A DNA stretch of 64,000 bases from an uncultured bacterium (GTDB taxonomy: Bacteria > Patescibacteriota > Saccharimonadia > UBA4664 > SCTI01), in contig CAVRJJ010000001.1 in the NCBI GenBank assembly GCA_963721685.1, forward strand, positions 68,555 to 132,554, given 5' to 3'. The notes below the pieces were generated by a model that saw nothing but the letters and a program-made list of their open reading frames with translations, had not been told where the DNA came from and ran no database searches. Numbering within the stretch: position 1 is the stretch's first letter; each line of letters begins with the position of its first letter. Shown here piece by piece: positions 2,750-58,083 of this stretch. A program made the translations under genes and the position numbers.

Positions 2750-4507
2750 ATGATCACCTATCTCCGTTTTCGTCTGCAACGCAACTTACGCCGGGTGCAG
2801 CGTAATGTGAGGCGCTTGTGGTATATGGGCAAGCGTTATATTAGGTTTGGGTTCTGGGGTAAATGGCGGCAGCTTACCATGATCCGACGGTTTGCCCTGG
2901 GTTGGTGGTTCGTAGTGATTGCCCTGGGCCTGGGGCTTGCACTGCAAACAAGCTCGATTCGCCAACGCGGGCTAGTAGCCCAGCCCCAAGCGGGCGGGAG
3001 CTATAGCGAGGCGGTGGTAGGCACAATTAAAAACTTGAATCCGGTGTTGCCTGAAGGCGGGGCCAGCGCCGATGCCAACCATCTTATTTTTAGCGGCCTA
3101 ACACGCACTACGGCCGAGGGAAAGCTGGAGCCTGATATTGCCGAAAGCTGGGACATTAGTCCGGACGGTAAGATCTATACTTTCCACTTGCGTAAGGACG
3201 TGCGTTTTCATGACGGTGTACCGGCAACCGCGCAAGATGTGGTTTTTACGCTTACGGCTATTCAAAACCCGGATACCCGCTCTGCCCTGGCTGCCAGCTG
3301 GCAGGGGGTGAAGGTTGCCGCCCCGGATGACCATACGGCTGTGTTTACCTTGCCAAAGGCTTATACCCCTTTTATTAACGCTACTACGGTGGGGCTTCTC
3401 CCGCGCCACCTTCTTGAAAACACCGAGCCAAAAAACTTAAGGGTGGTGGAGTTTAACCAAAAGCCGGTCGGTACCGGCCCCTACAAGCTATCGACCTTCG
3501 ATTCAACGTCCGGTGAAATTAACCTGACTGCAAACACCGCTTATTATCACGCGAAACCGCTGATCGCCAACATTACTCTTCGTCTTTATAGTGACTATGA
3601 CAAGGCCTTAGATGCCTATAAGCATCGTCAAGTGCTGGGCGTAGGGCGTTTGCAGCCGGATCAAATGAATGAGGCGGCCAAGTTGGGGACCTTATCGCTC
3701 TACCGGGCAAGCGTGCCTAACGCGGTAGGGGTATTTTTTAAGACAACTTCGCCGGTCCTTCAAGACAAGGCGGTGCGCCTAGGGCTCGCCCAGGCAACTG
3801 ATCGCGGGGCAATCGTAAAAAAGCAATTCCACAATGAGGCGTCACCATTGACCGGACCGCTTCTTAGTACCGGGTTAAATATGGCGGGAGCCGCCCACCA
3901 GCCGGCTTTCAACCTTAAGCAGGCGCAAACGACACTGGAGTCAGCTGGGTGGAAAGAGGGCCGGGGCGGCATCCGTGCCAAGAATGGTAAGTCGTTAAAA
4001 ATTAAGTTGGTTACCCAAGCAAACAGTCCTTATTCTCCTGTAGCCAAAGAGCTGGCCAAACAGTGGAAGCGCGTCGGGGCCGACCTCGACATAACTGAAG
4101 TCGGTCCGGATAAGTTACAGCAAAGCTATATTCGCCCGCGGAATTACGACGCGCTTTTGTACGGCATTAATTTAGGGGCAGACCCTGACGTTTACGCTTA
4201 CTGGAGCTCCTCGCAAATCAAGGATCCGGGACTTAATATCTCGGCTTACAGCTCGAAACAGGCAGACGCGGCGCTGGAAAGCGGGCGCATCTTGCGCGAC
4301 CCCGCCTTAAGGGCAGCAAAATACCGCAGTTTTATTCAAGCCTGGGTGAATGATACGCCGGCGGTCATGCTGTATACACCAAGTTATGAGTACGGGGTTG
4401 ATAGTTCGGTTTACGGCGTCTCTATCCGCAAGCTCATAAGCCCTTCCGACCGGTTTACCGGGATTGAGAAATGGTCGGTTAATGTGCGCGAAGTGCCTCG
4501 CCGCTAG
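2750..4507 (+). CDS. ABC transporter substrate-binding protein, family 5 (peptide/nickel type); the true start may be internal (about 2879)
   Basis: Signal-anchor helix, then the conserved ...IAESWDISPDGKIYTFHLRKDVRFHDG...TAQDVVFT... SBP_bac_5 pattern. The N-terminal 40 aa are Arg-rich and may not be translated. Confidence 0.7.
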   Translation: MITYLRFRLQRNLRRVQRNVRRLWYMGKRYIRFGFWGKWRQLTMIRRFALGWWFVVIALGLGLALQTSSIRQRGLVAQPQAGGSYSEAVVGTIKNLNPVLPEGGASADANHLIFSGLTRTTAEGKLEPDIAESWDISPDGKIYTFHLRKDVRFHDGVPATAQDVVFTLTAIQNPDTRSALAASWQGVKVAAPDDHTAVFTLPKAYTPFINATTVGLLPRHLLENTEPKNLRVVEFNQKPVGTGPYKLSTFDSTSGEINLTANTAYYHAKPLIANITLRLYSDYDKALDAYKHRQVLGVGRLQPDQMNEAAKLGTLSLYRASVPNAVGVFFKTTSPVLQDKAVRLGLAQATDRGAIVKKQFHNEASPLTGPLLSTGLNMAGAAHQPAFNLKQAQTTLESAGWKEGRGGIRAKNGKSLKIKLVTQANSPYSPVAKELAKQWKRVGADLDITEVGPDKLQQSYIRPRNYDALLYGINLGADPDVYAYWSSSQIKDPGLNISAYSSKQADAALESGRILRDPALRAAKYRSFIQAWVNDTPAVMLYTPSYEYGVDSSVYGVSIRKLISPSDRFTGIEKWSVNVREVPRR

Positions 4508-4767: not shown

Positions 4768-5622
4768 CTAATCAACAATTTTAGTGTAGGCGCGGGGTTT
4801 ACGGTAAGCGTTACCCCAAATTTGTCGCTTTCGCCAGAGACGAATTGACTTCATGTCGAATTCGGCATAATAAATACCTTCCCGACCATCAGCCTGAACC
4901 AGGCGGTTATCTCTATCATTTTGGCCTTCATCTTCAGTTACTGGGCTGAAAGCCACCGAATGGCCGTTATATTTGGGGAGAGGATAGTTTGCCATTGCGA
5001 CGCCAACCATATTTTCAAATGCCCTTGTGGAAAACTGTTGCAGCTGGGCCTTCCTAAGATTGCTAGCATTGGGGACAATAATAATCTCTGCGCCTTTCAG
5101 CATGAGAATACGGGCACTTTCAGGCTGCTCTCGGTCAAAGCAAATCATGGCGCCGATTTTGATTTCTCCAGCGGCGGTATCAAGAGCAGCAACCTCAAAC
5201 CGCGTTCCTGGCTCTAATAAAATTTCATCACCGAAATCACAGGTATGGACTTTGGAATAGTGGAGGCGCTCCTTGCCGTGGCGATCAAAAACGGTTACCG
5301 AGTTTTTTGGCATCGCCCTTCCGCAATCTTCGAGATAAGTGGCAGCGATAGCAATATTAAGGCTTTTGGCCAGCTTTCCAAATGACCGGACATAGTAACT
5401 AGTGCGGGCAACAGCCAGACGGTTCCATTTCTGGATATCGTGTTGATTCTGAGAGGGGGGAAACGTATAGCCGATATTCCAGAGCTCGGGAAACAGCACT
5501 ATGTCGACGTTTTTCCCAGCAGCTTCTTTGCAGCGCTCCAAAGCCATATCCTCTGCTTCCTTGAAAGTACGGGGAGGAGCAATTTGAAGAAGAGCAATTT
5601 TCACGGATTCCTTCATAGCCAT
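4768..5622 (-). CDS. Carbon-nitrogen hydrolase (nitrilase superfamily)
   Basis: N-terminal KIALLQIAP...DIVLFPELW... and GAMICFDREQPE (catalytic Cys context) match the Glu-Lys-Cys triad layout of CN hydrolases. Confidence 0.75.
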   Translation of the reverse strand: MAMKESVKIALLQIAPPRTFKEAEDMALERCKEAAGKNVDIVLFPELWNIGYTFPPSQNQHDIQKWNRLAVARTSYYVRSFGKLAKSLNIAIAATYLEDCGRAMPKNSVTVFDRHGKERLHYSKVHTCDFGDEILLEPGTRFEVAALDTAAGEIKIGAMICFDREQPESARILMLKGAEIIIVPNASNLRKAQLQQFSTRAFENMVGVAMANYPLPKYNGHSVAFSPVTEDEGQNDRDNRLVQADGREGIYYAEFDMKSIRLWRKRQIWGNAYRKPRAYTKIVD

Positions 5623-7052: not shown

Positions 7053-8447
7053 ATGATACACCGTGAACTGCATGAGAAATGTGCAGTATTTGCTATTTTT
7101 GAGCCAGACCAACAGGTCGCCCATAAAGTCTATTACGGATTGTACGCGCTGCAGCATCGGGGCCAGGAAAGCTCAGGAATCGTTACCGGAGACGGTAAGC
7201 AGTTTTACCGTCATCGCGAGCAGGGTCTTGTAGCCCAAGTCTACGATGACAAAGATCTTGAAGTCCTTCACGGCGGCATGGCGATTGGGCACAATCGCTA
7301 TTCAACGTCCGGCGGTACGTCGGCCAATCATGGTCAACCGGTGCTGCATCCTGAGGCGGGCGTGGCCTTTGCCCATAACGGGAATTTGCCCAGCACCCAG
7401 GCTCTTGAGGATTTCCTGGACAAGCACGGCATTGAGCACAGTGAAAGTAATGATTCGGAAATGATGGCCGCTTCCCTGAACTACTATGTGGGCAACGGTA
7501 TGGACTTGGCCAACGCGGTGGAACGGTGTTATAAGTATTTCACCGGTGCGTTTTCGTGTGTTGCCATGAGCCACGACCAGATTGTAGCCTTCCGCGACCC
7601 TTGCGGAATCCGGCCGCTGAGTGTAGGCAAGACGGAGTTTGGATGGGTAGTGGCATCGGAAACCTGCGCCTTTGACACAATTGGCGCCGGGCTGCTGCGG
7701 GATATTAACGCCGGCGAAATGATTATTCTGGATAAGCATGGCCTGCGCTCCCGCCAGCTGGTAGAACCTAACCCTAAACTCGATATTTTCGAGTTTATTT
7801 ATTTTGCCCGTCCCGACAGCCTGCTGATGGGGCAACGTGTCGGCGAAGTCCGCCGGGCTTTGGGCGCGCAGTTAGCCAAAGAGCATCCCCTGGAAGCTGA
7901 TGTGGTAATCCCCATGCCGGACTCGGCAATTCCGGCGGCTCTAGGTTACGCCCAAGCCAGCGGTATCCCCTTCGACCATGCACTTATTAAAAACCGTTAT
8001 ATCCATCGCACCTTTATTCAGCCAAACGACCAGGTCCGCAACCAGGACCTTCAACTAAAGCTTAACCCGGTGCCTGAAGCGCTGATGGGCAAGCGGGTAG
8101 TGGTGGTTGACGACTCCATTGTGCGCGGAACCACAACCCGTAAAATGATTAAAATGCTTTATGGTGCTGGTGCTAAAACGGTCTCGGTGCTTATTAGCTC
8201 CCCGCCGGTAAAGTATCCTGATTTCTATGGTATCGATACCCCGCGCCAGGCTGATTTAATAGCTGCCCAAATGTCGGTACCGGAAATCCAAGCCGATATT
8301 GGCTGCGAATACCTCGGCTACTTATCGTTTGAGGGAATGTTAAAAGCCACCAACATCAATCCGAACCATCTTTCTACTTCCTGCTTTAGCGGCATCTATC
8401 CTATCAACATTCGTGAACGAGCCAAAGAAATTACCCATATCGCTTAA
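7053..8447 (+). CDS. purF: Amidophosphoribosyltransferase PurF (glutamine PRPP amidotransferase) with a short N-terminal propeptide
   Basis: Cys10 followed by AVFAIF (Ntn nucleophile after the propeptide, as in B. subtilis PurF); PRTase motif VVVVDDSIVRGTT; C-terminal Cys residues for the Fe-S cluster. Confidence 0.9.
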   Translation: MIHRELHEKCAVFAIFEPDQQVAHKVYYGLYALQHRGQESSGIVTGDGKQFYRHREQGLVAQVYDDKDLEVLHGGMAIGHNRYSTSGGTSANHGQPVLHPEAGVAFAHNGNLPSTQALEDFLDKHGIEHSESNDSEMMAASLNYYVGNGMDLANAVERCYKYFTGAFSCVAMSHDQIVAFRDPCGIRPLSVGKTEFGWVVASETCAFDTIGAGLLRDINAGEMIILDKHGLRSRQLVEPNPKLDIFEFIYFARPDSLLMGQRVGEVRRALGAQLAKEHPLEADVVIPMPDSAIPAALGYAQASGIPFDHALIKNRYIHRTFIQPNDQVRNQDLQLKLNPVPEALMGKRVVVVDDSIVRGTTTRKMIKMLYGAGAKTVSVLISSPPVKYPDFYGIDTPRQADLIAAQMSVPEIQADIGCEYLGYLSFEGMLKATNINPNHLSTSCFSGIYPINIRERAKEITHIA

Positions 8448-10131: not shown

Positions 10132-10218
10132 GCGGGCGTGGTGGAATGGTAGACACGCCAGCTTGAGGGGCTGGTGGCCGCTTAGGCCGTGGAGGTTCAA
10201 GTCCTCTCGTCCGCACCA
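10132..10218 (+). tRNA. tRNA-Leu (anticodon GAG)
   Basis: Manual fold: acceptor GCGGGCG/CGTCCGC (one G-U), anticodon stem CCAGC/GCTGG, loop TTGAGGG, long variable arm, T-loop GGTTCAAGTCC, encoded CCA. Confidence 0.8.
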
Positions 10219-10228
10219 ATAACAATTA

Positions 10229-10305
10229 GGGCGATTAGCTCAGCTGGTTAGAGCACCTCGTTTACACCGAGGGGGTCGCGGGTTCGAATCCCTCATCGCC
10301 CACCA
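10229..10305 (+). tRNA. tRNA-Val (anticodon TAC)
   Basis: GGGCGATTAGCTCAGCTGGTTAGAGC..., anticodon stem CCTCG/CGAGG, loop TTTACAC, T-loop GGTTCGAATCC, encoded CCA. Confidence 0.85.
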
Positions 10306-10313
10306 TCTTACCT

Positions 10314-10589
10314 ATGAAATTAACAGAAAAAATCATCAATGAACGATTGGTGGAAATTCCAGGCTGGAAATTTTCCGATGATCGCCTGTACCGTGAATTT
10401 TCATTTAAGGATTTTGTTATCGCATTTACATTCATGATAAAAGTTGCGGAAATTGCCGAACAACGCAACCATCACCCTGATTGGACGAACATTTACAATA
10501 AAGTGACAATTCGGCTTAACACTCATGCCTTCGGAGGGGTCACGGATAAAGATTTTCAGTTAGCTAAAGAAATTAACACCTTGATTTAA
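10314..10589 (+). CDS. Pterin-4a-carbinolamine dehydratase (PCD/DCoH)
   Basis: EIPGWKF...DFVIAFTFMIKVAEIAEQRNHHPDWTNIYNKVTIRLNTH is the PCD signature ([EDKH]-x(3)-H(2)-P...). Confidence 0.8.
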   Translation: MKLTEKIINERLVEIPGWKFSDDRLYREFSFKDFVIAFTFMIKVAEIAEQRNHHPDWTNIYNKVTIRLNTHAFGGVTDKDFQLAKEINTLI

Positions 10590-10639
10590 TTGAAAAGCGA
10601 CACTATTTTCGCTATTATCTCTAGGTCGCGTTAGTACTC

Positions 10640-10715
10640 GGCGAGATAGCTCAGTTGGTAGAGCAGTGGCTTGAAGAGCCTCGTGTCCTCGGTTCGAGTC
10701 CGAGTCTCGCCACCA
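10640..10715 (+). tRNA. tRNA-Phe (anticodon GAA)
   Basis: GGCGAGATAGCTCAGTTGGTAGAGC, anticodon loop TTGAAGA (one U-U mismatch in the stem), T-loop GGTTCGAGTCC, encoded CCA. Confidence 0.8.
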
Positions 10716-10726
10716 AATATACACAT

Positions 10727-10802
10727 GCGGGTGTAGCTCAGCTGATAGAGCGCTTCCTTGCCAAGGAAGAGGTCCAGGGTTTGAGTCCCTGTACCCGCAC
10801 CA
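10727..10802 (+). tRNA. tRNA-Gly (anticodon GCC)
   Basis: GCGGGTGTAGCTCAGCTGATAGAGC, anticodon stem CTTCC/GGAAG, loop TTGCCAA, T-loop GGTTTGAGTCC, encoded CCA. Confidence 0.8.
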
Positions 10803-10957
10803 AAACGAATTTATAGATACTGCGCATCTTAATGGTGTGCTTTATTTTTTACGCTTATCTGTTAACGGTTTTAGTCTCGATTTCAACATTACTAACAAGC
10901 ATATATTTAAACTGGAAACTGTTGTAAGATGTCTTTTTTGTTATCATTATTCTATGC

Positions 10958-11466
10958 CTCAAACAAAAGATTTAATCGTTAACCATATATTTAATGCCCC
11001 AATCGAAAAAGTCTGGCAAGTCTGGACAGCAGAAAGATTCGTACAACGGTGGTGGGGAGTAGATGGCTTTACGAATATTTTGGCAAAAATGGATGTGCGT
11101 GAAAGCGGCATTTCGCATGTAGGAATGCGCGCCTCTAAAGAATACGGTGGATTGGATTATTACAATGTCTTTGAATATACACAAGTTGTTCCGCACAAGC
11201 TCATTAAATTCATAAGTAATTTTGCGGACGAGCAAGGAAATATAATTCCCCCCACACAAGCAGGCTTACCTGCAGAGACAGCTATGAATAAAAAACAGCA
11301 AGTTGAATTCGAAGCATTAGATGATACAAAAACCAAGGTCACTATTACAGAGTTTGGGTGGCTCGCAGACGGTATAATGCTTGAACGATCGCGGCGTGGA
11401 CTTGAGCAAACCTTATTAAACATTGATAAAGTATTAGAGGATGTAACGTCATGGACAAAGCAATAA
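10958..11466 (+). CDS. SRPBCC-fold protein (AHSA1 / polyketide-cyclase-like); upstream extension to 10837 unlikely
   Basis: VNHIFNAPIEKVWQVWTAERFVQRWWG is a typical SRPBCC/Aha1-like N-terminus. Low-GC gene. Confidence 0.55.
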
Positions 11467-12240
11467 ATGAATAAGACTAATTCTCAAGACGCAACAACTA
11501 TTGCCTTTGATAAAAAAGGCCAAGGACCGCTATTGATTTTGGTACTTGGAGCCTTGAACAGGCGTAGCCAAGGAAAAAAACTTACCGAGCTACTTTCTGA
11601 CCAATTCACTGTAGTGAGTTATGACCGGCGCGGTCGAGGTGACAGCACTGATACGCTGCCCTACACAATCAATAAAGAAGTTGAAGATATTGAAACATTA
11701 ATCAATGAATTAGGCGGGGAGGCGTACTTGTACGGACACTCATCAGGCTGCGTACTTGCACTCATGGTAGCAAAAGAACTAGGCGGCAAAGTTAAAGGCT
11801 TAGTACTGTATGAACTCCCGTATAACGCTGATCCAGCCGCTAAGACTGCTTCAGAAGTTTACAGAAAAGAACTTAAACGGCTCCTCGATGAAGATAATCG
11901 TGACGACGCGGTTGCCTTATTTGTAAAATCGGTGGGAGTAAGTGATAAGCAAATTGCAGCCATGGAACGTTTACCTATGTGGAAAGGTTTGACTGCCATG
12001 GCTCATACACTTGCTTATGACACTATCGAGCTTATGGAACAGTACCCAAAACTAGATACTAAAACCATAGATACAAGATCATTAGTCTTATATGGGGCTA
12101 ACAGCCCTGACTTCATGGGCGAGACAGCAAAGAAACTTTCAGAGACCATGCCTAATGCTCAGCTCCGTTCTCTTGACGGACAGTCTCACGATGTTAAGGC
12201 TGATGTTATCGCTCCGGTGTTGGCTAAATTTCTTCTTTAA
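11467..12240 (+). CDS. Alpha/beta-fold hydrolase
   Basis: GHSSG nucleophile elbow (YLYGHSSGCVLAL) with His near the C-terminus (GQSHDV). Starts one codon after the upstream TAA. Confidence 0.7.
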   Translation: MNKTNSQDATTIAFDKKGQGPLLILVLGALNRRSQGKKLTELLSDQFTVVSYDRRGRGDSTDTLPYTINKEVEDIETLINELGGEAYLYGHSSGCVLALMVAKELGGKVKGLVLYELPYNADPAAKTASEVYRKELKRLLDEDNRDDAVALFVKSVGVSDKQIAAMERLPMWKGLTAMAHTLAYDTIELMEQYPKLDTKTIDTRSLVLYGANSPDFMGETAKKLSETMPNAQLRSLDGQSHDVKADVIAPVLAKFLL

Positions 12241-12340
12241 AATTCATAGCGGAATACAGCCTAACTCAAGTAGTAGTAATACTTTTTGTATCTGTTAATA
12301 TGGTTATAACTTCAGCAACCGTGCTGCACCATTCGCAACT

Positions 12341-12368
12341 TTGAGCCCATTTAGGGCTCTTTTTTATC
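12341..12368 (+). terminator. Rho-independent terminator after the alpha/beta hydrolase
   Basis: GAGCCC-ATTTA-GGGCTC hairpin followed by TTTTTTA. Confidence 0.55.
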
Positions 12369-12525
12369 TGTTAATTCTGGGTTTTTAACACCTCTTATTC
12401 CTAGCAGAAGGAGTTAAGACGAAAAGTTTAGAAAGAAGGCTGCTTATTAGAGAAGATGATGGAAATAAGAATGCGTTTTAACCTAATTACCACAATGCCA
12501 TATTCAAACTGTTATATTCAAAACC

Positions 12526-12747
12526 ATGATTAAACTATTAAAAAAGAAATCGTTAATAATTGTTATTTCTCTTTTTATAGTATGCGGAAGACTTATTGCA
12601 TATTATGCAAATAACAAAAATGTTCCACTTATCAAGAAATACCCAAAAACAAAATTTAGTAGTGGATACGAGCAAAACGCTTTTATCTACAGCTGTTCCA
12701 AAGAAATAGAGTGTATATTACACTGGTGTAACAAATCACGAATTTAA
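12526..12747 (+). CDS. Hypothetical small membrane protein (73 aa)
   Basis: AT-rich ORF with one N-terminal TM helix and no motif. Coding status is uncertain. Confidence 0.3.
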   Translation: MIKLLKKKSLIIVISLFIVCGRLIAYYANNKNVPLIKKYPKTKFSSGYEQNAFIYSCSKEIECILHWCNKSRI

Positions 12748-12766
12748 GGGTGGCGGACCAGAGTAT

Positions 12767-13159
12767 TTGCCAGTTAGCCAAGAGGAAGCTAAAAAATACT
12801 GCAGAAGCGAAGGAGTCATTGAGTATCGTGCAGTATTTGATATCCTTAAAAGAGAAGACGTTAGTAGTATCATTGCTAAATATGACACGACGCAAGCTTG
12901 GGTCAGGGCTCTTGGCCATAAATATATACACGCCAAGGAATACCTAAAGCGTATATTGCCTGCATATAGCGATATGAAGATAGACTGCATTATCGTGGTG
13001 CACTCGCCAGAAAGTACTAGATTCTTCATCGAGGATGGTGAAAAACACAAAAGCCATCATGACCATCATTACCGCGAAGTTCCAGCTCAAGAATTTCTGA
13101 CATCACTCAATAATGCACCAGACACAGACGTAACTAGCTTTTGGCTAGGCTTGCATTAA
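12767..13159 (+). CDS. Hypothetical protein (130 aa) with a His-rich stretch HKSHHDHHY
   Basis: ORF in the low-GC accessory segment. No recognisable family. Confidence 0.4.
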   Translation: MPVSQEEAKKYCRSEGVIEYRAVFDILKREDVSSIIAKYDTTQAWVRALGHKYIHAKEYLKRILPAYSDMKIDCIIVVHSPESTRFFIEDGEKHKSHHDHHYREVPAQEFLTSLNNAPDTDVTSFWLGLH

Positions 13160-13317
13160 GCCACGTCCAGCAAATCTCTAAGAAGTAATGTTTTACTTTC
13201 GTAGCTAATAGCGCACCATTGAAATCACCAAGATTTACATCTGTTAAGTACCGACAAAATTGGTGTTTTTAACTAAACCCAAACAGAACTCAAACGCACC
13301 CTTTTGTTATAGTTAGT

Positions 13318-13735
13318 AATTTAGAAATAGATTAAATATAACGAGTAGTCCGACGCTCGCTACGACAGTCGGAATTGCGATAAATGAACTTAAATACCCT
13401 GCAAAGCCCTGCGACAAAGCTGCGGCTGAGGCAATGCCACCAGCAACCATAGCAAGACCAATTAGTACATTTAGCCACCGCTTGCCGAAGGCATTGTGCT
13501 AATACACAGAAACGCTGGCACTTACTGGATAGGGCCCAGCCAGCTCCCTGTATGAAAAGGCTGTGAACGCAGCAGTAATCGTTGCGATTAAGAAAGCCAG
13601 TGTGATACTGGTTCCAGCAAATCCAGCAACTTTTCCTACCAGAACATCAATACCCGCCCCGAGTATATTACCCAGACCATATAAGGTAACGAGCGGAAGA
13701 CCGAGCGACCGTTTTAACTTTACGCTACTGCTCAT
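13318..13735 (-). pseudogene. APC-family amino-acid permease, N-terminal fragment interrupted by an in-frame TAG
   Basis: Minus-strand translation gives ...LVTLYGLGNILGAGI...AGPYPVSASVSVY*HNAFGKRWLNVLIGLAMVAGG...FNLFLNY*. This is a single frame with an internal TAG at 13499-13501, and only about 140 of the roughly 450 aa expected remain. Confidence 0.55.
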
Positions 13736-13889
13736 GCTTTTTATTCTAACAGTTCACAGGCTTATATTATGGGCTACAGACCTTTAAACCAACATGCTTG
13801 AGATGGTTACTTGTTTTGTTTAAGTGCGACAGTTGCCACACAAAATTGACATACGTATGGTATGGTGGTACAATATACAATACTGTTTA

Positions 13890-14162
13890 GGAGATGTAAT
13901 GTTTGAGGTTCTAAAAAACTCGCTTAATAGCTGGAATGTACAAAAGAGCGAACGACAAAAGCTACAGCATGCTTATTTAGCTTTGACTGTATTGGTAGTA
14001 TTGCTTGCAGGGATTATAAGCCTATTTGACGGTGAGCTGGGCCATAACATAGTGCTTGTGGCGCTAATTGCTATTGGAGCTTACTTTGTAAATTCAATTG
14101 TGTGGAATCTGTTGCAGGCTTCATTGCTTGATAAGCTATCAACTAAACCCAAAAGAAAATAA
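13890..14162 (+). CDS. Hypothetical small 2-TM membrane protein
   Basis: MFEVLKNSLNSWNV...ALTVLVVLLAGIISLF...VLVALIAIGAYFV. Followed by a hairpin at 14177-14204. Confidence 0.4.
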   Translation, partial: GDVMFEVLKNSLNSWNVQKSERQKLQHAYLALTVLVVLLAGIISLFDGELGHNIVLVALIAIGAYFVNSIVWNLLQASLLDKLSTKPKRK

Positions 14163-14378
14163 GAATATTTAGCTAATTAGGAACATGGGAGTTCCTAATT
14201 TATTCGGTAGATTTCTGGTATTCTCTAAGAAATAGCGTTTTACTTTCGTAGCTTAACGCGCACCGAATGGGAATTATCGGACGCTTCTGTGTCCTTTTTT
14301 TATTGTTGTTAATCTGTGGAAGAGTATTGAATGTTAAAATCAGATAGGAACTAACTTAAATGAAAGCGAGTATATAAA

Positions 14379-14759
14379 ATGGCAAAATATGTTGATGGTT
14401 TTGTACTGGTAGTTCCTAAAGGAAAAGAAGCTGAATACCAGAAAATGGCAGAAGAAGGGCGTGATTCATGGATGAAGCACGGTGCGCTTCAATACTTTGA
14501 ATGCAGAGGTGATGATCTGAAGCAGCAGGAAATGGGTGATCATAAATCACGTGCTTATAAAGAAATGGCTGGTGCGGGTGACGATGAAAACGTCTGGTTC
14601 TCATTTATTGTTTTTGAATCTAAAGAACATCGCGATGAAGTAAACAAGAAAGTTATTGCTGAGATGGATGAAACATATAGCGATCAGACTGACTTTGAAA
14701 TGCCGAACGATATGAAGAAAATGGCGTACGGTGGCTTTGCGGTAGCAGTTGAGGGTTAA
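14379..14759 (+). CDS. DUF1428-family protein
   Basis: MAKYVDGFVLVVPKGKEAEYQKMAEEG...WMKHGALQYFEC matches the DUF1428 N-terminal pattern. Confidence 0.55.
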   Translation: MAKYVDGFVLVVPKGKEAEYQKMAEEGRDSWMKHGALQYFECRGDDLKQQEMGDHKSRAYKEMAGAGDDENVWFSFIVFESKEHRDEVNKKVIAEMDETYSDQTDFEMPNDMKKMAYGGFAVAVEG

Positions 14760-14869
14760 GATCAAAAATATGGAGAAGGGATTTAGAAATGTCTTATATA
14801 AAAGCTAAAAGCCTATAAAATTAGCAGATATGAAATTAATAAAATCTAATCTAAAAAGAATGGATAACG

Positions 14870-30981: not shown

Positions 30982-31006
30982 ATAATTTTTAGATGATAGC
31001 GGTCGC

Positions 31007-31030
31007 GCAGCCCGCCAGATGGCGGGCTGC
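31007..31030 (+). terminator. Perfect 10-bp hairpin GCAGCCCGCC-AGAT-GGCGGGCTGC at the 3' end of the upstream operon and the edge of GC-rich islet A
   Basis: Read directly. Only a weak T tract follows (TAGGTTTC), so it is a possible bidirectional terminator. Confidence 0.4.
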
Positions 31031-31287
31031 TAGGTTTCACGGACTATGTCACTCTCCCAAGCCCACACCGGCCATGCCGTGTTAATGTAGGGGTGAGGTG
31101 GCGGGTTGAGCGGCAGTAGCTTGTACCGCCACTCCAGGCGCTGATCGCCGTGCTCGTCGAGGGGACGCTTTTGTTCGCGCCGTTCAACAACAACACAGGT
31201 GAGTACAAGCTTCGGATCGGCGGGCGACCGAAAGGTCACTCGCGTGGTGCCGTCGGCGCTGTATATCGGTGGCGGGCGGCTGCCCAT
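31030..31287 (-). CDS. Hypothetical protein (85 aa) in GC-rich islet A, second gene of a minus-strand pair
   Basis: Strong SD AAGGAG 4 nt before the ATG (minus strand, 31287), 26 nt downstream of the previous stop. MGSRPPPIYSADGTTRVTFRSPADPKLVLTCVVVERREQ... The longer 173-aa ORF (to 31551) is the same frame but overlaps the other gene, so the SD-supported start is preferred. Confidence 0.45.
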   Translation of the reverse strand: MGSRPPPIYSADGTTRVTFRSPADPKLVLTCVVVERREQKRPLDEHGDQRLEWRYKLLPLNPPPHPYINTAWPVWAWESDIVRET

Positions 31288-31313
31288 AATGCTCCTTGTC
31301 TTGGAGGTGAATG

Positions 31314-31685
31314 CTACGAGATCATCACGGGCGATTCGCCTCGCTTGTGGTTGATTGCGTCGCGAATGGCTTCGAGTTCCTCGTGGTCGAGAACCGCGAA
31401 CGAAGCCCAACTGTCGGCTCCGACCTCGCGTCCGTTGATCAGGTAGCTCTGTCGACGAATCGGCATGCCCTGGTCGTCGTAGTCGACGGTTTCGATCCTC
31501 ACCGCGAACGTGGTCCGAGTACCGTTGGGACGGCGGTAAGGGACGCTGCACGAGTCAATTGCTGGCTTTGCAGCAGCGACGAGCCTCGTGATCAGATCCT
31601 TGGCCTCCACCATAGCGATGAGAGCTCGTGCTCGTCTGGAGGTTCTCCACTTCGATGCTGGCCTTTCTATGGTATTGCCCATCAT
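31314..31685 (-). CDS. Hypothetical protein (124 aa) encoded in GC-rich islet A
   Basis: Minus-strand ATGATG at 31685/31682 preceded by GAAAGTAGGACC (SD-like). The sequence MMGNTIERPASKWRTSRRARALIAMVEAKDL...LDHEELEAIRDAINHKRG matches no family I recognise. GC content is about 60% or more. Confidence 0.45.
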   Translation of the reverse strand: MMGNTIERPASKWRTSRRARALIAMVEAKDLITRLVAAAKPAIDSCSVPYRRPNGTRTTFAVRIETVDYDDQGMPIRRQSYLINGREVGADSWASFAVLDHEELEAIRDAINHKRGESPVMIS

Positions 31686-31822
31686 TGGTGGTCCTACTTT
31701 CGGGTTGTGTGTTAAGAAACCGTTGCTTATATATACCACAAATTGCTTAAAGTTTCAAGTGTTTCCATAATTACGCTAACGCTTGGGCGTGGTATACTAA
31801 GTGAATCGAAAAGGGGGCCTGT

Positions 31823-35404: not shown

Positions 35405-35482
35405 TTTCCCGTTAATGGGAATGTAATTATTACAAATCATGGTATAGTATCTTTGCTTCAGCAAACCGACCGAAGGACAACC

Positions 35483-35743
35483 ATGGAAGACCCTTACCAG
35501 GTTCTAGGTGTTCCTGCATCGGCAAGCGAGGAGGACATCAAAAGAGCGTACCGTGTACTCGCGCGGCTGCATCACCCGGACCAAAATCCAGGGAGGGGTG
35601 ACACCGACTTTAAGGCGGCTACCGCGGCCTATGAAGAGCTGAGCGATCCCGAAAAGCGACGCCAGTATGACGCAAAACAAAATCGTCCTGATTTCGCGGA
35701 GATGGTTGGCCGTTATTTCGACGCCTTTTTCTCCGCGAGGTAA
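35483..35743 (+). CDS. Stand-alone J-domain (DnaJ-like) protein
   Basis: DPYQVLGV...EEDIKRAYRVLARLHHPDQN...AYEELSD: J-domain with HPD tripeptide. SD GAAGGA 6 nt upstream of the ATG at 35483. Confidence 0.7.
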   Translation: MEDPYQVLGVPASASEEDIKRAYRVLARLHHPDQNPGRGDTDFKAATAAYEELSDPEKRRQYDAKQNRPDFAEMVGRYFDAFFSAR

Positions 35744-35791
35744 CCAGTTTCTGCACAAAGGCAAACCCACGAAACGAAAGTAGGTGGACAA

Positions 35792-35932
35792 GTGCGATGC
35801 AAGTTCCGGTTCTGGCTGCAGGAAGAGCGCGGAGATGCTGGCACGGTGATGATGGTCGTGCTGTTTCTGGTGATCCTGGCGCTGGTGGTCCTCGGGTTCC
35901 TCTTCCTCCCACCCCTGCCTCATGCGGGTTGA
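35792..35932 (+). CDS. Small hydrophobic peptide (46 aa from GTG; 27 aa if ATG at 35849) in GC-rich islet B
   Basis: SD AGGTGG 4 nt before the GTG. Encodes ...MMVVLFLVILALVVLGFLFLPPLPHAG, a single TM helix. The stop TGA is 1 nt before the next ATG. Confidence 0.4.
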   Translation: MRCKFRFWLQEERGDAGTVMMVVLFLVILALVVLGFLFLPPLPHAG

Positions 35933-35933
35933 C

Positions 35934-36062
35934 ATGTCGAGGTTCAGGCGCGGGAAGGTACGCAGTCTCATCTTCGACGTAGTCGTTGCGCTGTTGTTGC
36001 TCGCAGGGCTCATCGCCTTCTGCGTGGCGATGGCGTACTTCGACCGCAACCCGATATGGTGA
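35934..36062 (+). CDS. Small membrane peptide (42 aa) translationally coupled to the previous peptide
   Basis: MSRFRRGKVRSLIFDVVVALLLLAGLIAFCVAMAYFDRNPIW: basic N-terminus plus one TM helix. GC-rich codons (CTG/GCG/CGC). Confidence 0.4.
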   Translation: MSRFRRGKVRSLIFDVVVALLLLAGLIAFCVAMAYFDRNPIW

Positions 36063-36187
36063 AGCCGAAGCTGGCTCACCAGTGCCTTCTCCGGGCGCTA
36101 CTCTGTCAATCGACCGAGAGCGCTTTGGAGGGGGCGTTCTTAGTTATTATTGATCTGCCCATCAGATTATGCTACATTACTTGGGTT

Positions 36188-57651: not shown

Positions 57652-58083
57652 ATGGGAAAAGCATCGGCTCTTGACCAACGCGGATCCAACTGGGAGATCA
57701 CGAACGGAGGCCTCACGCTGGTCCTCAACGACTGCTTCGTGTTCACACGTAGCCCACGCCTTCGTGGGGTAGGCAACACCAAGGGCTCAGTTCTGAGCAG
57801 GCTCAACGCCCAGCTGCACGCGCTCATCGCGCGCGGCATGTGGGGGCAGGTTGACTTCATGCTCGGATCAAGCCAGCTGGTAGCCCAGTTGTGGATGCGC
57901 TGGGACCTCCAGTCGCGCCATCTGCAGGTAAGTGAAACCGTCCGTCTTCCGGGCCACCCGGTTCCGCTTGTCTGCGTGCGTTTCGAGCAGTTGGCCGAAC
58001 CGGGCTGTTTGCTCCTCGCTCCGGGAGTCGGGCAAGGTGATGAGCTCGCGTTCATCAACTCCCTGGGCTACCGCATCAGCTGA
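57652..58083 (+). CDS. Hypothetical protein (143 aa) in GC-rich islet D
   Basis: MGKASALDQRGSNWEITNGGLTLVLNDCFVF...AQLWMRWDLQSRHLQ...GDELAFINSLGYRIS. About 60% or more GC with CTG/GGC/CGC-biased codons. No family recognised. Confidence 0.45.
   Translation: MGKASALDQRGSNWEITNGGLTLVLNDCFVFTRSPRLRGVGNTKGSVLSRLNAQLHALIARGMWGQVDFMLGSSQLVAQLWMRWDLQSRHLQVSETVRLPGHPVPLVCVRFEQLAEPGCLLLAPGVGQGDELAFINSLGYRIS

Follow-up and report, generated by a model that had tools for sequence, protein, structure and literature searches.

A GC-rich islet with two predicted orphan genes between the DUF5665 gene and dnaE of an uncultured Saccharimonadales bacterium

The window, which is the whole 64-kb stretch of DNA that was analysed, carries a GC-rich islet (Table 1) with the genes of YtxH (PF12732) and DUF5665 (PF18910) on its left and dnaE on its right. 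The host is a soil member of the Saccharimonadales (Saccharibacteria/TM7, Patescibacteria). Across this order the arrangement of the genes for an MscS-like protein, an 85-aa protein, YtxH and DUF5665, together with dnaE, is conserved. When the N-terminal 359 aa of the dnaE product were compared, the best matches (up to 80-87 % identity) came solely from Saccharimonadales MAGs and soil/rhizosphere metagenome contigs. Two open reading frames, ORF A and ORF B, lie in the islet on the same strand with a spacer of 26 nt. They are divergent from dnaE and convergent with the DUF5665 gene. Both were also predicted by independent gene callers (P0001 for ORF A and P0002 for ORF B), and neither product is hydrophobic.

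Table 1 Features of the islet and of the same site in related loci. Positions are those of the window or, for the cargo ORFs, of the locus named; the two Shine-Dalgarno sites and the candidate cassette promoter were read from the sequence.
Feature	Position	Strand	Remarks
Inserted GC-rich islet	31000-31745 (edges approximate)		Left edge ~31000, right edge ~31700-31748; from GC, signature and synteny
Perfect GC-rich hairpin	31007-31030	.	10-11 bp stem; arms 31007-31017/31020-31030, 100 % complementary
ORF B	31030-31287	-	85 aa; predicted soluble, all-beta; Pro/Trp-rich tail
Shine-Dalgarno site of ORF B (AAGGAG)	31292-31297	-	4 nt ahead of ATG
ORF A	31314-31685	-	123 aa; basic, pI 9.35; predicted soluble
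Weak Shine-Dalgarno site of ORF A (AGGA)	31692-31695	-	6 nt ahead of ATG
Candidate cassette promoter	31730-31758	-	TTGAAA (31758-31753), 17-nt spacer, TGg-TATATA (31735-31730)
Native dnaE extended -10 (TGgTATACT)	31790-31798	+	Outside the insert; marks the native right flank
L006 cargo ORF, DUF5665/dnaE site	4879-5220	-	113 aa
L013 cargo ORF, DUF5665/dnaE site	7399-7833	-	144 aa; itself a singleton
L088 cargo ORF, DUF5665/dnaE site	3172-3831	-	219 aa

In a preliminary description of this DNA, made from the sequence alone, ORF A had been placed on the minus strand with a length of 124 aa. The strand was correct and the length was one too high, as the stop codon had been counted. The length of ORF B, the spacer and the AAGGAG site were all present as described, and so was the perfect hairpin at the edge of the islet. 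This hairpin has a centroid folding energy of -21.4 kcal/mol and no U-tract. Its last base overlaps the stop codon of ORF B, and it sits between ORF B and the convergent DUF5665 gene. It was not picked up by a terminator consensus scan and is absent from L089, L081 and L001, the nearest relatives in which the site is empty. We consider it a candidate bidirectional terminator.

Upstream of ORF A, the TTGAAA-17-TGgTATATA arrangement may drive the cassette. It is an imperfect candidate, as its -10 hexamer is without the final T, and it was missed by a consensus promoter scan. Its -35 part falls in TTTCAAG, a native motif conserved in relatives. For the native dnaE promoter, TGnTAnnnT occurs with unchanged spacing to the start of dnaE in L001, L002, L003, L006, L007, L085 and L089. 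A conserved motif upstream of dnaE (TTTCAAGnCTTTAAnCGCTTATGCTC-like) followed by TGnTAnnnT was also observed at 31750-31800, with equivalents in L001-L007 and L081-L089. The TTTCAAGnCTTTAAnCGCTTATGCTC-like motif is too distant from the -10 to be the -35 of dnaE and may be a regulator-binding site.

When the base composition was calculated, GC contents of 0.578 (31030-31745), 0.600 (31001-31700) and 0.611 (30999-31658) were obtained for the islet, compared with 0.497 for the 64-kb window. The span 30999-31658 has the highest GC of all 660-bp windows in the 64 kb (mean 0.497, sd 0.042; about +2.7 sd), and the runners-up have 0.594 and 0.588. Dinucleotide relative abundance placed the 700-bp window from 31001 first of 634 (z 4.3). 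Since the dinucleotide signature deviates most at this position, the anomaly is not just one of GC. The tetranucleotide distance (z 3.0) ranked 14th, and higher values were found solely in a low-GC block at 12-14 kb. Thus the windowed GC and tetranucleotide values mark the islet as a compositional outlier. The islet had been described as richer in GC than its flanks, which holds, at 60-65 %, which is too high for the approximately 60 % that was calculated.

The low-GC block (~10300-14760, GC 0.35-0.44) lies directly 3' of a tRNA cluster (10132-10799). Tri- and tetranucleotide usage deviates more strongly in this block than anywhere else in the window (z up to 4.6-4.8), and the block probably forms a genomic island of its own.

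The distance between the DUF5665 gene and dnaE was compared among 16 related Saccharimonadales loci that hold both genes. In the window this gap is 841 bp, whereas it is 50-107 bp in 11 of the 16 loci and approximately 200 bp in two. The loci with a short gap include the nearest relatives, L089 (dnaE 87 % identical, gap 100 bp), L081 and L001, and the site is empty in the six closest relatives. To the right of the islet, sequence common to the relatives resumes at ~31748-31766. A tblastn search with ORF A and ORF B against 160 fetched loci gave no match. The Logan assembly of run ERR12037361 contains a single 1829-bp contig that has the same gene order and spans both junctions. This assembly is separate from that of the contig, but the reads are probably the same ones. 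Because the Logan contig spans both junctions, an assembler-specific join is unlikely.

The codon usage of the islet is also unlike that of its neighbours. The synonymous codons of ORF A and ORF B together fit the tables of L010 and L013, which are higher-GC Saccharimonadales, better than the native table (-0.118 bits/codon), whereas all 42 native genes favour the native table (+0.173 +/- 0.064, minimum +0.044). The preliminary description had proposed an acquisition into an otherwise syntenic core region. This is borne out by the outlier composition, by the codon usage and by the relatives, 11 of 16 of which have YtxH/DUF5665 and dnaE close together and the islet missing. A genuine insertion of foreign DNA, specific to this lineage, is well supported.

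A donor of high GC had been suggested as well. The codon usage is indeed foreign, but the donor need not be exotic, since the codons and GC3 of the islet (0.69-0.70) match those of related higher-GC Saccharimonadales (mean GC3 0.63-0.71). In a survey of aquifer Patescibacteria, most of the detectable transfers into Patescibacteria originated in other Patescibacteria (PMC12455944). No donor or homologue was found in protein clusters, phages, plasmids, or viral and metagenome contigs.

The DUF5665/dnaE site is occupied in other genomes too. Long inserts are present in L006, L013 and L088, each with one minus-strand ORF at this site (Table 1). These three cargo ORFs are unrelated to one another, to ORF A and to ORF B, and family searches with them gave no match. 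A hairpin is located 3' of the DUF5665 gene in L006 and L013. The boundary between dnaE and rplS varies in a similar manner, with gaps of 45-169 bp in 9 of 13 relatives, of 482-1419 bp in the other four and of 784 bp in the window. The islet is therefore one case of a general pattern, in which small accessory units are found at operon boundaries while gene order is otherwise conserved.

Several further observations were made on these inserts. The cargo of L006, L013 and L088 has the composition of its own genome in each case. In all four occupied genomes the cargo reads away from dnaE, a sample too small for a significant orientation bias. Inserts of 0.5-1.4 kb between dnaE and rplS were located at ~11561-12980 in L005, ~10697-11664 in L010, ~7675-8649 in L088 and ~4384-4866 in L009. 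The window has its second GC-rich insert at this boundary (35405-36187). A GC-rich gene on its plus strand encodes a stand-alone J-domain protein of 86 aa (35483-35743; Pfam DnaJ, 5.8e-22) with the HPD motif, followed by two hydrophobic ORFs of 46 aa (35792-35932 and 35922-36062). The phage tblastn matches of the J domain are generic and indicate no donor, and a long ORF on the minus strand (35504-36079) appears to be an antisense artefact. A third GC-rich ORFan (57652-58083, plus strand, 143 aa) has a GC of 0.618 and a GC3 of 0.743, the maximum of the window. Its codon usage is also non-native, GC-rich hairpins lie 3' of it, and no match to it was found in Pfam, NCBIfam or phages.

We also analyzed whether the two ORFs are genes or chance frames. 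Other frames of the islet are open as well (minus strand, 173 aa and 141 aa; plus strand, 134 aa and 98 aa), and Pfam searches with the 173-aa (minus) and 134-aa (plus) frames gave no match. Since dinucleotide-preserving shuffles of the islet reach an ORF length of 124 aa or more in 26 % of cases, ORF length alone is no better than chance. GC at codon positions 1/2/3 is 0.57/0.49/0.69 for ORF A and 0.66/0.50/0.70 for ORF B. In both frames GC2 is low and GC3 is high, and the low-GC codon phase changes exactly at the junction of the two ORFs. The 173-aa minus frame was rejected as a gene, as it has its GC minimum at position 3 where it overlaps ORF A. In a codon model trained on 45 genes from higher-GC Saccharimonadales, with six frames scored per segment, the frames of ORF A and ORF B were the best of six (0.02 and 0.04 bits/codon), whereas the others scored from -0.18 to -0.97. 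These two scores correspond to only the ~5th-8th percentile of true genes. The preliminary description had allowed that other frames might be equally open. Several are open, but the codon-phase GC and the codon model favour ORF A and ORF B. The two-gene minus-strand reading, which is moderately supported, thus appears to be the best reading of the islet DNA.

The preliminary description recognised neither product as a member of a known family, and family, sequence and fold searches, all without a match, agree with this. No family was found for ORF A or ORF B in Pfam, NCBIfam, PHROGs or PADLOC-DB (Pfam, NCBIfam and PADLOC at E-values up to 1). In an indexed search of 5.8 billion clustered proteins each ORF matched only itself. 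When ORF A was compared with 1.84 billion representatives in an exhaustive phmmer search, no homologue was accepted. This search returned weak multi-stretch matches to a mixed set of giant repeat proteins (Calx-beta, cadherin-like, PKD and fn3). We concluded that these are not homologues of ORF A, as the score is a sum over similar repeats of ~26-30 % identity. ORF A residues 44-119 (31329-31556, minus strand) weakly resemble a T-x-T-F-x-Y ... D-x-D-x-D-G ... L-x-L-N-G beta-strand repeat of such giant surface proteins, at 26-33 % identity per repeat, which may reflect a beta-sandwich-like segment or a chance match.

A PDB sequence search with both ORFs gave best E-values of 0.15-0.65, including the Fn3-like chain 3mpc (E-value 0.65), and nothing usable. 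No match to the islet was found by tblastn against phages and plasmids, by blastn against plasmids, or by pattern scans of IMG/VR and metagenomes. The single-sequence AF2 model of ORF A has a pLDDT of 68.7 (core 77-85), with a helix predicted at residues 17-38, four strands over 45-90 and helices over 93-112. The model of ORF B is all-beta and weak (pLDDT 59). Foldseek searches with both AF2 models against the PDB and with ORF A against BFVD gave no hit with an E-value below 0.01 or a TM above 0.4, a weak test for models of low to moderate confidence. By these comparisons the two predicted products are singletons.

Taken as a whole, the islet is probably a horizontally acquired, moron-like accessory unit of ~0.7 kb with two genes, located at a transcription-unit boundary. 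Approximately 0.7 kb of DNA was inserted between the YtxH/DUF5665 and dnaE transcription units, with no recognisable mobile-element machinery. The route may have been illegitimate recombination, with DNA either taken up by the cell or brought in by a mobile element. The donor would have had a GC of ~60 %, and a higher-GC Patescibacterium or its mobile element may fit as well as any. Reading away from dnaE, the proposed unit consists of an AT-rich leader with the candidate promoter, ORF A, the spacer with AAGGAG, ORF B and the hairpin. Transcription would start from the AT-rich leader, and both genes would be translated off one mRNA as an operon. The hairpin would then stop the cassette transcript as well as read-through from the convergent DUF5665 gene. 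The two small, presumably cytoplasmic proteins would work together as an accessory module. Our best guess for its role, and the weakest step of this proposal, is a conflict- or addiction-type function of the kind carried by a mobile element.

It is also conceivable, though rather unlikely, that foreign coding DNA without a function was captured at a permissive intergenic site and that the two ORFs are relics or chance frames. The non-significant ORF lengths, the other open frames, the low codon-model scores and the poor model of ORF B are in line with such a capture, and DNA of this kind would also give no homologue anywhere searched. However, both ORFs are complete, each with a Shine-Dalgarno site ahead of its start codon. 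An AT-rich leader precedes the unit, which stops exactly at a strong hairpin. In addition, the GC pattern by codon phase is undisturbed and shifts precisely where the two genes meet, and ORF A folds from a single sequence with moderate confidence. The streamlined genomes of the Saccharimonadales group tend to lose useless DNA, which we also counted against non-functional DNA.

A new type II toxin-antitoxin (addiction) pair, in which a toxin and its neutralising partner would stabilise themselves after transfer, appears distinctly unlikely. The islet does resemble operons such as higBA, relBE and parDE in having two small, adjacent and co-oriented genes with a short spacer on acquired DNA, with one 3' hairpin common to both ORFs. 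The basic character of ORF A would suit a toxin. Its helix and antiparallel sheet loosely recall, as we presume, toxins of the RelE/ParE type, a likeness that we take as a lead only. The islet proteins differ from these systems in that searches of Pfam, NCBIfam and PADLOC at E-values up to 1 assigned them to no family of toxins or antitoxins. Foldseek against the PDB, which holds many RelE, ParE, HigB and MazF structures, gave a best E-value of 0.09 and a TM of 0.29 with models of low to moderate confidence. Neither protein is predicted to have an RHH, HTH, AbrB or Phd domain, that is, a DNA-binding antitoxin domain, and ORF B is predicted to be all-beta. Described anti-phage defence families were likewise without a match to either protein in PADLOC-DB (E-values up to 1). 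The preliminary description had regarded the arrangement as typical of toxin-antitoxin or small defence/immunity pairs. With no match to a family, to a PDB fold or to a viral fold, this reading lacks support, since it was drawn from the two-gene format only.

An assembly chimera or contamination could be suspected, as the islet is a compositional outlier in a metagenome-derived genome sampled once (when other samples were searched, the species was found in run ERR12037361 only; n=1), but this is extremely improbable given native sequence on both sides within a 405-kb contig, one contig over both junctions from a second assembler (Logan), and the presence in L006, L013 and L088 of comparable inserts, with cargo of another kind, at this position. 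Hardly any weight can be given to a GC-rich structured non-coding RNA or to an ancestral locus lost in relatives: as a whole the islet is more stably folded than its shuffles (z -4.2), but z drops to -2.3 once the hairpin is left out, a value in the range of native controls, and is -0.9 and -1.4 for ORF A and ORF B, Rfam gave no match to the islet at E-values up to 1, the codon-phase periodicity points to coding DNA, and both the foreign composition and the lack of the islet from this site in the six closest relatives contradict ancestry. The structured RNA was rejected because of the Rfam result and because the z-score is explained by the terminator hairpin.

Among known systems, the horizontally acquired accessory unit proposed here can be compared with phage morons, which are independent promoter-gene-terminator units between genes that are adjacent in related phages (PMC4378225). 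The islet is similar in that it lies between genes adjacent in relatives, has a composition unlike that of its neighbours and brings ribosome-binding sites of its own, with an AT-rich leader at the 5' end and a hairpin at the 3' end. Like morons, it has neither a recombinase nor end repeats, and in layout it would be their chromosomal counterpart. It differs in that it has two genes instead of the usual one, in that its promoter and terminator are only candidates, and in that it resides in a conserved chromosomal core (YtxH, DUF5665, dnaE, rplS and an rnhB-like gene) and not in a phage or prophage. The syntenic core neighbours and the PHROGs search gave no sign of a phage or prophage setting.

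The islet resembles integron cassettes, IS elements and MITEs in that it is a small unit with a hairpin at one end and in that one site takes up differing cargo from genome to genome. Unlike these, the islet is without integrase, attC, inverted repeats, target-site duplication or repeat copies in the window. A transposon, IS or MITE was rejected as the islet lacks terminal inverted repeats, a target-site duplication and a recombinase ORF, and an integron cassette was rejected as there is no integrase and no attC-like imperfect palindrome. No repeats beyond chance were found at the boundaries of the islet. Neither the islet nor its hairpin recurs in the 64-kb window, and the islet has no sequence in common with the other GC-rich islets or with the remainder of the window.

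The islet belongs to the strain-specific ORFan genomic islets, an already familiar kind (small transferred indels at operon boundaries). As these are, it is short and lineage-specific, with atypical GC, signature and codons, no homologues and a position at a variable intergenic boundary. No difference of substance was found.

A bolder proposal would be that ORF A and ORF B form an unseen two-protein conflict module (toxin-antitoxin or defence/anti-defence) in the mobile gene pool of soil Patescibacteria, with DUF5665/dnaE and dnaE/rplS as recurrent capture sites for promoter-to-terminator ORFan cassettes across Saccharimonadales. We offer it as a speculation that is more probably wrong than right by a wide measure.

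For annotation, the compositional anomaly of the islet is real, and the toxin-antitoxin label should not be used. The proteins of ORF A and ORF B, if functional, would represent new families. Even a very streamlined and syntenic Saccharimonadales genome takes in small foreign gene units at operon boundaries with no visible integration machinery. In other lineages, unrelated cargo has come to lie at these boundaries too, and small-scale gene capture recurs around dnaE.
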